Sequence record: KX377933
DNA: 64,000 nucleotides
Reading direction: 5' to 3' (one strand)
DNA from: Escherichia phage vB_EcoM_Alf5
The translations under genes were made by a program, and so were the position numbers. The notes beneath the pieces are model-generated. The model was not told the DNA's origin, searched no databases, and worked only from the letters and a program-made list of their open reading frames with translations. Below are positions 2,447 to 28,107 of this stretch, piece after piece (the first letter of the stretch is position 1; each line of letters begins with the position of its first letter).

Positions 2447-3556
2447 ATGACTACTAAAACTAAAGCACAGATTGACGCAGAAATTTACGAACTGGTTAAA
2501 GAAGGTAAGCTGACTAAAACAGCTATTGCACAGAAGTTCAATACTTCAACCCGTTCAGTTGGTCGTGCTGTAGAGCGTCATGAAGCAACCTTAAAAGGTA
2601 AGAAAAAGGTAGCTTCTAAACCAGCTACGAAGACTTTGAAGCAAGTTGCTAAATCAGTTAAAAAGAAAGCTGACAAACCAGTTGAAAAGGTTGTTAAAGA
2701 GCCTGTACAGAAAGCTCCGGTAAATAAACTGCATGAAGCTATGCAGAATGGCAACCAGATTGAGTACATGATTACTGGCGACTCTGTTATCATGACTTTC
2801 GGTGCAGATTCTGAAATCGTTGAATCTACCCATCCGAACTACAAAGAAATCGTGATGGCTGTTGTATCAGGTGAGTATAAGAAAGCTTTCGAACTGATGA
2901 ACATTCGTAAGTCTATCGAAAACTTCACTCAGGGTGCTATCACCATCAAAGGTGACAAGTTATTCTACGGTGCTGTTGAGATGCGTTCTACTCTGGTTGA
3001 CCGTATTCTTCACATGATGAAGACTGGAGATAAGGGTTTTGAACGCCTTGTGATGTTCTTCGAAAAACTGATGGAAAACCCATCTAAAGATTCTGTAGAA
3101 CAACTTTGGGGATTCGTATCTCACCTTGATGTTGAAATTGATGAAGAAGGCTACATCATTGGTTGGAAGAAAGTCTCTACTCATGAAGGCAAGCTGGTTG
3201 ACTCCCACACCTACAGAGTACCTAATGATTTGGGTAACATTGTAGAAATGCCACGTTGGATGGTTGATAATAACCGTAACGTGACTTGCTCTCAGGGTCT
3301 TCACGTTGGTGCTTGGGATTATGTTCGTTGCTTCTCAGGTGATACAATCCTGAAGGTTCGTGTCCATCCACGAGATGTTGTATCTGTTCCAACTGATTAC
3401 AACGATATGAAGATGCGTTCGTCTCGTTATGAAGTTGCAGCAATCGTTGATAATCAACGTAAAGTGCTGAAAGAATGGGATGGCAAGACTGAAGCTTTGC
3501 ATGTCATCGTTGGCACTGCTGGTGAACTAATCTCCCAACGTAAACGTGAAATCTAA
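2447..3556 (+). CDS. rIIB: rIIB-like protein
   Basis: 369-aa ORF; C-terminal VHPRDVVSVPTDYNDMKMR and TCSQGLHVG segments match the rIIB pattern as I recall it; adjacent to rIIA. Confidence 0.7.
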   Translation: MTTKTKAQIDAEIYELVKEGKLTKTAIAQKFNTSTRSVGRAVERHEATLKGKKKVASKPATKTLKQVAKSVKKKADKPVEKVVKEPVQKAPVNKLHEAMQNGNQIEYMITGDSVIMTFGADSEIVESTHPNYKEIVMAVVSGEYKKAFELMNIRKSIENFTQGAITIKGDKLFYGAVEMRSTLVDRILHMMKTGDKGFERLVMFFEKLMENPSKDSVEQLWGFVSHLDVEIDEEGYIIGWKKVSTHEGKLVDSHTYRVPNDLGNIVEMPRWMVDNNRNVTCSQGLHVGAWDYVRCFSGDTILKVRVHPRDVVSVPTDYNDMKMRSSRYEVAAIVDNQRKVLKEWDGKTEALHVIVGTAGELISQRKREI

Positions 3557-25606: not shown

Positions 25607-25645
25607 AAAGTTGTTGACATTGAGATGTGACTACTTTATAGTAAC
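25607..25645 (+). promoter_or_regulatory. sigma70-like promoter inside tRNA island
   Basis: aaagTTGTTGACA, 17-bp spacer, TATAGT. Confidence 0.45.
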
Positions 25646-25846
25646 CTTAGTTTTCGTTGCGTAGCGTCTATTTTGCAAATTTAAAATAAATGCAAACGAC
25701 AATGTTTTTCTGGCAGTAGCTTGATAGGCTAAACACCAGTGAGGTCTTCCAATCCCTCATCAAAGAATTTGGCGTACTAGCCCACGGTATGATTAATAAG
25801 GTGGGCATCTTTAAGGGCTTTCTAAGAGAGTCTTTAAAGATAATTA

Positions 25847-25928
25847 CGGGGCGTATCTCAGCGGTCTTCTAAACCGCCGTTAACCGAGTAAGTGGAGTAT
25901 GCGGGTTCGAGTCCTGCCGCCTCGACCA
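25847..25928 (+). tRNA. atypical tRNA-like element, anticodon-like loop TCT (Arg?)
   Basis: 7-bp acceptor cggggcg/cgcctcg and T-arm present, perfect hairpin gcggt-cttctaa-accgc, but no canonical D-arm; 23 nt before T-arm. Confidence 0.3.
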
Positions 25929-25942
25929 ATTTTGGAGAAATC

Positions 25943-26290
25943 ATGAAAACTTGTATTAGGTGCAAACTTAGCAAGGATGAAAATGATTTCTACATGAAAG
26001 ATGGTAGGAGGACTCATTCATACTGTAAAAAGTGTGTTAATGAGCAAACCATAGAAAGACAAAGAGCACTTAAACTCTCAGCTATTGAGTACAAAGGTGG
26101 GGTTTGTCATGATTGTGGTAAAAAGTATCATCCAGCAGTGTATGACTTCCATCATTTGAATCCTTCAGATAAAGATTTTAACATTGGTCATAGGAAAAGC
26201 CTTAAGTTCTCTCAAGAACTAAAAGATGAACTTGACAAATGTGTTTTGCTATGTTCAAATTGCCATAGGGTAAGACATGCAAAGTATTAG
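25943..26290 (+). CDS. HNH homing endonuclease
   Basis: CxxC...HHLNPSDKDFNIGH...CSNCH motifs; ATG at 25943 with GGAG RBS; track start 25892 lies inside the tRNA-like element. Confidence 0.65.
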   Translation: MKTCIRCKLSKDENDFYMKDGRRTHSYCKKCVNEQTIERQRALKLSAIEYKGGVCHDCGKKYHPAVYDFHHLNPSDKDFNIGHRKSLKFSQELKDELDKCVLLCSNCHRVRHAKY

Positions 26291-26427
26291 TTAGCAGATT
26301 ACTTAGACGACCTTAGCGGGTCTTCCTGTAGGGAGGTGGTCTGTATCTCATGTTTTCCAGAACATGTAAATAATCTGAGAAGGGGCTTTACAGTGTTGAG
26401 ATAATACGGTAAGCTTCGAATTATAGT

Positions 26428-26510
26428 ATGGGACGATGTTAAGACTCTAAGGCATGAGCAACGGCCTCCAAAACCGTTTCAAAGGGGTTCAACTCCTCCG
26501 TCCCATGCCA
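26428..26510 (+). tRNA. atypical tRNA, anticodon CCA (Trp?) with ~7 extra nt between acceptor and D-arm
   Basis: perfect acceptor atgggac/gtcccat, anticodon arm acggc-ctccaaa-accgt, T-loop ttcaact, CCA. Confidence 0.4.
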
Positions 26511-26611: not shown

Positions 26612-26868
26612 CCTAATAAGATTTAAAGCCAAGCTTCATTCGGATGTCGCTTTGGTATCCCGCGTGTATTGTCGTACACACTGATAAAACACCTAGTAGG
26701 TGTCACGGAGAAGAGATAATATCAAGCTCTCCAAAGGTTCTAGTCACCGGATTAAACAAGACTATGCAAAGACCTTTTTAGGTCTTTTTAGAGGGCTTCT
26801 AAGGTTATTACAGCTTGTTGTGGAACCTTGTTGCTTAGGTTCTTAGAAGTTCTCTAAAAAGATTTAAT

Positions 26869-26946
26869 GGGAGATTGACGGTAATTGGTAAACCTACCAT
26901 CCTTAGAAGTTGGTGTTTGAGGGTTCGAATCCCTTGTCTCCTACCA
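26869..26946 (+). tRNA. class-I tRNA, anticodon TAG (Leu by anticodon)
   Basis: acceptor gggagat/gtctcct, anticodon arm ccatc-cttagaa-gttgg, 5-nt variable loop, T-loop ttcgaat, A73, CCA. Confidence 0.45.
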
Positions 26947-27523: not shown

Positions 27524-27541
27524 ATTTAAAGAGGCTATTTA

Positions 27542-28099
27542 ATGAGATATTTGAAGTACGCTTCATGGATTTTCTTAGCTTTACTAGACCCAATTGCAGC
27601 AATCCTAGCAGTTATTTTAGCACCTTTCGTAGTTCCATTCTACAGTGAGAAGAAAGGACATCTACCTTTTGGATTCAGATGGATGGAGACATATGACAAC
27701 CCAATTGATGGTGATGAAGGTCACGTTAAAAGATGGGCTAAGATTAGAAAGATTGGTAAGCTGGGTGTCTACATGCAGAGAGTCGGATGGCTCTGGAGAA
27801 ACAAAGCTTATAACTTCTCTTACCATGTATTAGGAAGAGATGTAAAAGATGTTACTAAGTGGAAAGGTAATATCAACGTAAGTTCTGACCCCGAAGATAA
27901 TCAGACAGGTTATCTCCTAATGTGGAACAACAATGCTTGGGGATTATTCGCTTTTATTCCGTCAATTAAAGTCTTTGGTAAACAGTTTTACTGGAGAATT
28001 TATGTTGGATGGAAACTAAAAAGTGTTGTCCCAGAAGAAAGAGCATTCTCAAGGGAAAGAGTTATGTTGGCATTCTTTATTCATCCACTGAGAAAGTAA
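27542..28099 (+). CDS. hypothetical membrane protein inside tRNA island
   Basis: 185-aa ORF; N-terminal hydrophobic segment IFLALLDPIAAILAVILAPFVVPF; Trp-rich; AGAGG RBS. Confidence 0.5.
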   Translation: MRYLKYASWIFLALLDPIAAILAVILAPFVVPFYSEKKGHLPFGFRWMETYDNPIDGDEGHVKRWAKIRKIGKLGVYMQRVGWLWRNKAYNFSYHVLGRDVKDVTKWKGNINVSSDPEDNQTGYLLMWNNNAWGLFAFIPSIKVFGKQFYWRIYVGWKLKSVVPEERAFSRERVMLAFFIHPLRK

Positions 28100-28107
28100 A
28101 GATTTAA

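Follow-up and report, generated by a model that had tools for sequence, protein, structure and literature searches.

Two atypical transfer RNA (tRNA)-like genes flanking a putative HNH endonuclease gene were analysed in Escherichia phage vB_EcoM_Alf5 (sequence record KX377933), in a stretch of 64,000 nucleotides hereafter called the window. With a probability of about 0.68, both are working tRNAs with non-standard cores, which would supply arginine (codons AGA/AGG) and tryptophan (UGG), the two amino acids lacking among the 24 ordinary tRNAs of the phage. Element 1 (positions 25847-25928, + strand) would belong to a widespread phage-borne tRNA-Arg class with a rewired layout, and element 2 (26428-26510, + strand) would be a tRNA-Trp specific to the Ounavirinae, with an invariant connector of 8 nucleotides (GAUGUUAA), a D-stem of 3 base pairs (bp), a Watson-Crick pair 26-44 and a mismatch 31.39. 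In the comparisons made here, both elements appear far above chance and conserved with compensatory substitutions in relatives. For element 1, the existence of the family, its conservation, its structure and its arginine specificity are considered as established by sequence comparison with high confidence.

Around both elements, the sequence shares 98.8% identity with Escherichia phage warpig and about 95% with Salmonella phage Felix O1, and on this basis the window is assigned to Felixounavirus (Felix O1-like phages). Its tRNA cluster occupies approximately 24.2-29.5 kb on the + strand. ARAGORN predicted 24 tRNAs for 18 amino acids in the window, arginine and tryptophan being the two without tRNA, and an Rfam search of the whole window at the gathering threshold returned 22 tRNAs in the cluster and called neither element 1 nor element 2. 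The anticodon-like loops of element 1 (TCT) and element 2 (CCA) correspond precisely to the two absent specificities. AGA is the commonest arginine codon of the window (41.6%), and AGG accounts for 11.3%. Since ARAGORN detected no arginine tRNA and the canonical tRNA-Arg(ACG) carried by some relatives was not found in the window, element 1 is the sole RNA of the cluster with an arginine anticodon.

Element 1 is 82 nucleotides long, CCA included, and its parts follow each other in an unusual order. The acceptor stem (5' strand CGGGGCG, 25847-25853, pairing with CGCCTCG, 25918-25924, in 7 pairs of which one is G-T) is followed by a UAU connector (25854-25856), by the 5' strand of a helix of 3 to 4 layers (CUC, 25857-25859, and A25860) and by the anticodon arm (25861-25877; stem GCGGU/ACCGC of 5 bp, loop CUUCUAA of 7 nucleotides, anticodon UCU at 25868-25870). 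Then come a bulge of 7 nucleotides with the general form C-R-U-Y-A-A-N (CGUUAAC(C), 25878-25885), which follows the anticodon stem, the 3' strand of the helix (GAG, 25886-25888, pairing with CUC), a joining strand of 12 nucleotides, U-A-A-n-Y-G-G-A-G-U-A-U (UAAGUGGAGUAU, 25889-25900), a canonical T-arm (GCGGG-UUCGAGU-CCUGC, 25901-25917), the 3' strand of the acceptor, the discriminator A (25925) and the CCA (25926-25928), all on the + strand. A25860 faces C25885 and forms with it the fourth layer of the helix, usually A.C. The acceptor stem of 7 bp, the T-stem of 5 bp and the T-psi-C-type TTCRA loop are those of the cloverleaf, as is the anticodon arm, with its stem of 5 bp and its loops of 7 nucleotides (such as CTTCTAA and CTTCTAC, the second loop base being T). 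A D-arm, considered as a stem of 3-4 bp and a loop of 7-11 nucleotides between the acceptor and anticodon stems, is missing: only 7 nucleotides (TATCTCA) are found there, and a segment of 23 nucleotides (CGTTAACCGAGTAAGTGGAGTAT) precedes the T-arm. Instead, the 5' strand that follows the acceptor pairs with the strand located 3' of the anticodon hairpin, in what is hereafter called the replacement helix, the 5' strand of which (C-N-N and the usual A.C layer) continues directly into the anticodon stem. A previous sequence-only reading of this DNA had described the acceptor, the T-arm, the hairpin with loop cttctaa, the 23 nucleotides before the T-arm and the absence of a D-arm; all of these were confirmed, and a covarying replacement helix and a wide phage family are added to them here.

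The structure was evaluated on an alignment of 55 distinct element 1 sequences (A3), counting the three classical helices and the helix formed by the connector and the insert. In this alignment 94.6% of the cells are paired, versus 64% in shuffled sequences and 33-47% when the partners were slid, and changes on both sides occur in 19 of the 21 pairs. Such double changes affect all 7 pairs of the acceptor (99% of cells paired), all 5 pairs of the anticodon stem and 4 of the 5 pairs of the T-arm (99% paired), in which the equivalent of G53-C61 is GC in 54 of the 55 sequences. In the replacement helix, the outer pair C11-G42 is invariant, pair 12-41 is UA in 36 sequences, AU in 9, GC in 9 and CG in one, and pair 13-40 is CG in 46, GC in 6 and UA in 3, no unpaired cell being observed at either position. 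The fourth layer (14-39) is mostly A.C or C.A, and at times A-U, C-G or U.G. The UAU connector is invariant in the same alignment, and is TAT in 65 of the 67 full-length members described below. A larger alignment of 70 sequences (A7), which was fitted to a covariance model and is thus biased towards the structure, gave 97.6% of paired cells overall and double substitutions in 19 of 20 pairs; its replacement helix is 98.6% paired with double changes in all three pairs, the outer pair being C-G in 69 sequences and G-C in one divergent member.

Standard tools did not recover a canonical fold with a normal D-arm for either element. Element 1 was not called by ARAGORN in standard, relaxed (-ps), -ps80, intron or mitochondrial mode, and the calls made by the -ps80 mode were spurious. 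The Rfam tRNA model RF00005 reached 31.7 bits on element 1 (cut-off 29), in a sensitive scan restricted to 1.3 kb, with an alignment that deletes the D-arm (4 nucleotides versus 15 in the model) and inserts 20 nucleotides in the variable region. A model of the family (R1) scored 100.3 bits on element 1 of the window, which is itself a training sequence, versus at most 36.9 bits on the canonical tRNAs of the window. An intron or split-gene organisation of element 1 was rejected, as the members of the family align co-linearly without gaps and rearranging the segments never yields a canonical tRNA. Weak Rfam matches in the spacers (a tmRNA-like match of 15 bits and miRNA-like hairpins) were treated as noise or simple hairpins.

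A BLAST search of the 96-nucleotide region against GenBank phages returned 276 records. Copies that are 83-90% identical, and mostly unannotated, occur in unrelated phage groups, namely Sugarlandvirus and a Serratia phage (Demerecviridae), Mydovirus and W70 (Vequintavirinae), Justusliebigvirus (Stephanstirmvirinae), the jumbo Asteriusvirus PBECO4, Erwinia Kolesnikvirus and Streptomyces phages. Three GenBank records labelled as Campylobacter or Listeria phage (MG065664, MG065656 and OK283618) carry near-identical Felix O1-like or rV5-like copies, and their host labels look doubtful. A scan with a fixed motif of 23 nucleotides retrieved 74 IMG/VR contigs and was repeated with patterns freeing each half of the insert, which yielded further members, whose first half has CATTAA, CATCAA or CGTCAA and whose second half has CGGAG or TGGCG. 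When the corresponding half of the motif was left unconstrained, the bulge had the consensus C-R-U-Y-A-A, and the joining strand was found as UGGAG, CGGAG and UGGCG. The family thus gathered comprises at least 67 distinct full-length sequences, the invariant GG of the joining strand being followed by A in 65 (GGA) and by C in 2 (GGC). Tested on genome contigs, the scan gave 4 real copies (one disrupted), on metagenome-assembled genome (MAG) contigs labelled Neisseriaceae, Gammaproteobacteria, Saprospiraceae and Culicoidibacterales, and 14 of its 18 matches were discarded as chance occurrences inside coding sequences. No match of element 1 was found in 5,426 complete E. coli genomes. ARAGORN calls of tRNA-Arg overlap members of the family only sometimes.

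Two contigs illustrate the variation of the family. IMG/VR contig L277 carries three rewired arginine tRNAs (478-558, 3326-3405 and 3407-3496, with anticodons TCT, GCG and TCG), the last of which has a longer insert and a total length of 90 nucleotides, so the architecture tolerates expansion. On MAG contig L087, labelled Neisseriaceae, the T-arm of one copy (1458-1536) is replaced by unrelated sequence, which makes it a true pseudogene, and an intact divergent copy (2103-2182) lies 600 nucleotides downstream.

In E. coli, the identity elements for arginyl-tRNA synthetase (ArgRS) are A20 in the D-loop, C35, U36 or G36, and A73 or G73. The anticodons of the 67 full-length distinct members are TCT in 62, TCG in 2, and CCT, ACG and GCG in one each, all of which are arginine anticodons, and an arginine anticodon was not demanded by the collection patterns or by the model for the divergent members. 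C35 with U36 or G36 (NCT or NCG) is accordingly present in 67 of 67, the discriminator is G or A in 59 and the CCA is encoded in 48. Several isoacceptors with the same architecture can be carried by a single contig (TCT, GCG and TCG in L277, TCT and ACG in L086, TCG and TCT in L049, CCT and TCT in L058). In the sister genus Mooglevirus (phages Sf16 and ESh22), a canonical tRNA-Arg(TCT) of 76 nucleotides occupies the same slot with homologous flanks and is followed by a homologous HNH gene, and in Pectobacterium phages a canonical tRNA-Arg(TCT) follows tRNA-Ile, with no HNH gene annotated there. In tRNA-rich loci carrying the rewired RNA, the canonical arginine tRNAs are ACG, CCG, TCG, GCG or CCT, and a canonical TCT co-occurs in locus L045 only.

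Element 2, of 83 nucleotides with an encoded CCA, has an acceptor ATGGGAC/GTCCCAT (3' strand 26500-26506), a discriminator G (26507) and the CCA at 26508-26510. Its extended connector GAUGUUAAGA (26435-26444) is followed by a D-arm (26445-26458; stem CUC/GAG, loop UAAGGCAU), an anticodon arm (26460-26478; stem AACGG/CCGUU, loop CCUCCAAAA of 9 nucleotides, anticodon CCA at 26468-26470) and a T-arm (26484-26498; GGGG-UUCAACU-CCUC). The sequence-only reading had noted the CCA anticodon and about 7 extra nucleotides before the D-arm, and both observations hold, with 26 nucleotides between the acceptor and anticodon stems versus 19 normally. The key anomaly is the connector, which reads GAUGUUAA(G)A over 8-10 nucleotides and is invariant in an alignment of 12 distinct sequences (A5), and which replaces the two-base connector (positions 8 and 9) of a normal tRNA. 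The same alignment has an invariant anticodon CCA. The middle pair of the D-stem is UA in 7 sequences and AU in 5, a compensatory switch, 4 of the 5 pairs of the anticodon stem show double changes (AACGG/CCGTT, GTAAG/CTTAC, GTAGG/CCTAC), and pair 59-73 of the T-arm is GC in 10 and UA in 2. The pairs of the anticodon stem are shifted one step outward, with 26-44 Watson-Crick and 31.39 C.A or C.C, so that the loop can be read as 9 nucleotides, or as 7 nucleotides closed by a C.A/C.C mismatch. An alternative D-stem AUG/CAU is compatible with the data and was set aside, being backed by one-sided wobble changes only.

Of the ARAGORN modes, only the mitochondrial one called element 2, as Trp-cca; the standard, relaxed and intron modes missed it. 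Its score on the tRNA-Sec model was 23 bits in a sensitive Rfam scan. Homologues were found only in Ounavirinae, that is in Felixounavirus, Mooglevirus, Suspvirus and the Pectobacterium phages Arno162 and Wc4-1 (about 76% identity). The identity elements for the E. coli tryptophanyl-tRNA synthetase are A1-U72, G73 and the anticodon CCA, and element 2 conforms to them, CCA and G73 being invariant and pair 1-72 being A-U in 8, G-U in 3 and G-C in one of the 12 sequences. Phage Sf14 was published with 26 tRNAs for 19 amino acids and none for tryptophan (PMC12482277); its genus carries a homologue of element 2, which fits element 2 as the overlooked twentieth specificity. A metagenome scan for element 2 with GGGACGATGTTAAG gave at least 120 chance matches, with no homologue among the matches listed, and viral scans for similar genes with other anticodons were discarded as well, GATGTTAAGG being the ordinary D-stem and D-loop of some unrelated tRNA-Lys-like genes and not a shared insertion. 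In three unrelated viral contigs (L238, L250 and L262), tRNA-Lys(CTT)-like genes have a D-arm GATG-TTAAGGCAG-CATG with the same string as the extra connector, which hints at the origin of the insertion, e.g. by partial duplication of a D-arm. Between 25878-25900 and 26437-26458, the two elements of the window share GUUAA, a CUC/GAG helix and UAAG(U)GG..AU in a different order; this may be a coincidence, or may reflect a common tertiary motif or binding factor.

The branch formed by the acceptor and the T-arm of element 2 can also be read as 8/4, as in allo-tRNAs, with a pair G26435-C26499 and a T-stem of 4 bp, rather than as 7/5 with a long connector. This is a serious possibility, to which we nevertheless give somewhat less than even chances. 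The G and the C are invariant in the 12 sequences, the minimum-free-energy fold has an acceptor of 8 bp, the apparent A.C mismatch 49.65 disappears, and 8/4 tRNA-Ser and tRNA-His occur in phages (PMC5389517). Yet the pair G8-C65 never varies and thus brings no covariation evidence, and element 2 has neither the long V-arm nor the long D-stem with tetraloop that are typical of allo-tRNAs.

The HNH gene (25944-26290, + strand, 115 amino acids) is a free-standing cassette between both elements, and its ATG at 25944 lies 15 nucleotides after the CCA of element 1, as the sequence-only reading had stated, with GGAG upstream. The encoded protein matches Pfam HNH PF01844 with 17.6 bits (E = 0.0045), below the cut-off of 21.4, although all 47 profile positions are covered, and its homologue is annotated as HNH endonuclease in the records of relatives; it is probably a divergent HNH member. 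The cassette is present or absent among close relatives, and approximately a quarter of the query is missing in Mushroom, humlepung and DaR-2019a. Its junctions are clean, between ...CCAATTT and AGTTAGCAG..., outside both RNAs, and relatives lacking this gene (e.g. Salmonella phage DaR-2019a, L004) have an unchanged element 1 and an element 2 that differs by two substitutions in the anticodon loop only. The HNH gene thus damaged neither RNA. Of 54 distinct copies of element 1, 7, from seven lineages, have an HNH gene 10-100 nucleotides downstream, versus 2 of 53 with one upstream, and two different families are involved, the type of the window and HNH_3 with or without NUMOD4. In Escherichia phage VpaE1_ev78 (L001:1135-1624), a second HNH-family gene of 134 amino acids lies 15 nucleotides after the homologue of element 2, so both atypical tRNAs can precede HNH cassettes. 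Searching the vicinity of element 1 for conserved partner proteins revealed none, and only HNH genes recur; the largest cluster of neighbours consisted of antisense pseudo-open reading frames across element 1 itself and was rejected, the other clusters being lineage-specific synteny. These recurrent downstream genes, and the precedent of the T4 endonuclease SegB discussed below, lead us to suggest that the HNH gene is probably an independent mobile cassette of the spacer which uses a conserved tRNA gene as landing site, and that homing may help the spread of element 1. The association with HNH genes made in the sequence-only reading thus stands as a recurrent neighbourhood and falls as a cause of disruption.

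On the reading preferred here, element 1 would be released from the transcript of the cluster by RNase P and by 3' processing. The host ArgRS would then charge it through C35, U36 or G36, and A73 or G73, for use on the ribosome. Its long arm would comprise about 9 stacked layers, close to the length of a normal stack of D-stem and anticodon stem. The joining strand of 12 nucleotides resembles a D-loop, and its GG probably docks on the T-loop to form the elbow, the A that follows possibly acting as the A20 identity element of ArgRS. A bolder version is proposed tentatively, and with more doubt than confidence: element 1 would represent a distinct class of arginine tRNAs which evolved in bacteriophages and is spreading among them, and in which the 3' strand of the D-stem and a D-loop-like strand were moved 3' of the anticodon arm. 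The resulting L-shape would be accepted by ArgRS, EF-Tu and the ribosome and would escape host factors recognising the normal D-arm or elbow (tRNA-cleaving immune nucleases, quality-control or modification enzymes), its spread being aided by HNH homing endonucleases using the gene as landing site. Any selective advantage of the rewiring is speculative.

Several observations weigh against these proposals. RNAalifold applied to the family does not predict the replacement helix by itself, folding element 1 as a single sequence gives no gain in stability over shuffled sequence (z = 0.04), and the helix holds just 3 reliable pairs; the case for it relies on covariation, since both folding approaches miss such a short helix. 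The family was gathered largely with sequence patterns, so that the invariance of its motifs looks inflated, although the relaxed scans did find variants. The GG-A was mapped onto G18, G19 and A20 by analogy, and two members have GGC. The discriminator is U in 7 of the 67 members, and L045 has an RNA of the element 1 type together with a canonical tRNA-Arg(TCT), so that the two are not strictly exclusive. Element 2 is represented by 12 distinct sequences from one subfamily, the pairing of its D region depending on one compensatory pair. Finally, we infer the charging of both RNAs and their use in translation from comparison alone.

The sequence-only reading had proposed that the two genes are tRNAs disrupted by homing-endonuclease activity or, alternatively, unusual functional tRNAs. 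Decaying tRNA-Arg and tRNA-Trp pseudogenes, damaged by indels, perhaps through HNH-mediated repair, and conserved in appearance through kinship or through travel with HNH cassettes, would account for the rejection of both elements by standard finders, for the recurrence of HNH genes directly 3' of element 1 and for the label tRNA-OTHER given to copies in some GenBank records, and truly disrupted copies do exist (L087:1458-1536 and L274). This explanation is very improbable and already contradicted by the covariation data. The 67 distinct sequences of element 1 are spread over unrelated phage families, with the double substitutions and paired cells reported above for alignment A7 and with invariant loops, and all their anticodons are for arginine; element 2 has compensatory changes in three stems, reaching the Pectobacterium phages at 76% identity. 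Both RNAs are under structural constraint and are kept in relatives without the HNH gene, with no more than the two substitutions in the anticodon loop of element 2, and the cassette lies outside both of them. Comparative evidence supports the second proposal, unusual tRNAs of which the function would be translational. A second explanation keeps element 1 functional and denies it the replacement helix: it would simply be a mitochondrial-type tRNA without a D-arm, the 23 nucleotides forming an unstructured long variable loop and the covariation having another cause. RNAalifold and single-sequence folding do give the three classical helices only, and the Rfam alignment handles the 23 nucleotides as an insertion. 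We consider it quite unlikely, as four Watson-Crick types occur at pair 12-41 and three at pair 13-40, without one broken cell in 55 sequences, versus the low pairing of the slid controls, as the outer pair is reversed to G-C in one divergent member, and as the fourth layer alternates between A.C, C.A, A-U, C-G and U.G; the mitochondrial mode of ARAGORN, moreover, misses element 1.

An explanation of another kind, unlikely although less so than the two preceding ones, is that element 1 does not translate and is a tRNA-shaped decoy or antidote, which would absorb a nuclease of the host or of a rival phage directed at tRNA-Arg, or another tRNA-binding defence protein, its altered core preventing its consumption or its entry into the ribosome. 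Its core is unlike that of any translating bacterial tRNA in a 2020 review (PMC7609411), its anticodon loop CUUCUAA is nearly invariant, and three reports document phage tRNAs acting against tRNA-cleaving defences (PMC10264068, PMC11555353, PMC11464382). However, five different arginine anticodons, with 2-3 isoacceptors on single contigs, fit decoding and not the mimicry of one target. Element 1 also occupies the slot of the canonical tRNA-Arg(TCT) of sister genera, is the sole RNA with an arginine anticodon where AGA is the commonest arginine codon, and retains the 7/5 acceptor/T branch, the discriminator and the CCA, all of which argue for the preferred reading of a working tRNA-Arg.

Other features were observed in and around the tRNA cluster. 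A strong promoter-like site (TTGACA, 17 nucleotides, TATAGT; 25614-25642, 11 of 12 matches) precedes element 1, from which it is separated by about 200 nucleotides without a convincing open reading frame, and the stretch 25614-25846 is kept in relatives. A weak promoter-like site (TTGAGA, 17 nucleotides, AATTAT; 26396-26424, + strand), consisting of a consensus match only (9 of 12), is located just 5' of element 2. Between them, tRNA-Ser(TGA) and tRNA-Leu(TAG) enclose a long, near-perfect hairpin (26774-26873), which gave microRNA-precursor-like Rfam matches (32.7 bits, below the cut-off) and may serve in processing or termination. In relatives such as L042 and L060, the canonical tRNA-Arg(ACG) and about 250 further nucleotides come straight after tRNA-Leu(CAA); the window is without this segment of about 330 nucleotides, the match jumping from 27527 to 27542 (region 27524-28107). 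An open reading frame of 185 amino acids with a hydrophobic N-terminus (27543-28099) lies within the tRNA cluster.

To our knowledge, translating tRNAs outside organelles are thought to share the cloverleaf core, the exceptions (tRNA-Sec and allo-tRNAs) changing the length of arms and not the order of strands. If the proposed reading is true, an L-shape can arise from another strand topology, in a family which spans enterobacterial and Streptomyces phages and MAG contigs of other phyla. Element 1 would then be a natural test case for research on ArgRS, RNase P, EF-Tu and the ribosome, as well as a new scaffold for the engineering of orthogonal tRNAs, and would bear on the question of why phages carry tRNAs, e.g. 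for escape from tRNA-directed immunity. Both RNAs escape standard annotation, so that the numbers of tRNAs counted in phages, and of the amino acids that these cover, are too low, as exemplified by the 19 amino acids published for Sf14 and by annotations of Felix O1-type phages in which arginine and tryptophan are both lacking. The interest of the two elements lies therefore in tRNA biology and in phage annotation.

Compared with known systems, the HNH cassette is like SegB of phage T4 (PMC2330249): in both cases a free-standing endonuclease gene, present or absent among close relatives and expected to carry the flanking tRNA genes along, lies in a tRNA cluster. SegB is a GIY-YIG enzyme, whereas the proteins found here are HNH and HNH_3, and homing here is putative. 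Concerning the RNAs, a candidate structured RNA with covariation, DNAVirus_2961, was reported from IMG/VR and likewise overlaps an ARAGORN tRNA-Arg call only sometimes (Fremin et al. 2023, PMC10690425). It may be the same RNA as element 1, and the paper gives no architecture, anticodon analysis or functional reading (PMC10690425). The literature search found no published description of the element 1 architecture, the alignment of DNAVirus_2961 not having been compared.

Allo-tRNAs, with 8/4 or 9/3 branches, were mined from genomes and metagenomes, some of them in phage tRNA clusters, and work in translation in E. coli (Mukai et al. 2017, PMC5389517). Their oddity resides in the acceptor/T branch (acceptor of 8-9 bp, T-stem of 4-3 bp) and in a long V-arm and a long D-stem, whereas element 1 has 7 and 5 pairs in this branch, all supported, and a rewired D region; element 2 is possibly 8/4 like them, but is without their other features. 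Mitochondrial D-armless tRNAs (e.g. metazoan and nematode mt-tRNA-Ser) share with element 1 the lack of a conventional D-arm and a short 5' connector to the anticodon arm. They are shortened, flexible and organellar, their T-arms are often reduced, and the 2020 review of non-canonical tRNAs describes the loss of the D-arm only in mitochondria and makes no mention of phages (PMC7609411). Instead of a short replacement loop, a reduced size and no compensating helix, element 1 has 82 nucleotides, which is longer than normal, a full T-arm, a covarying replacement helix and conserved strands, and it is found in bacteriophages. The closest resemblance is to the canonical tRNA-Arg(UCU) (Sf16, L002:576-651, and E. 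coli argU), with which element 1 shares the loop CUUCUAA, the acceptor of 7 bp, the T-arm of 5 bp with its TTCGA loop, the discriminator A or G and the CCA, as well as, with that of the sister genus, the slot between tRNA-Ile and the HNH gene. Unlike it, element 1 has no D-arm between the acceptor and anticodon stems and 23 nucleotides instead of a variable loop of 5, and the 3' partner of its D-stem-like strand and its D-loop-like strand come after the anticodon hairpin. Element 1 appears thus as a previously undescribed wiring, tRNA-Arg(UCU)-like in its probable function and departing from the cloverleaf in its defining feature, the D-arm.

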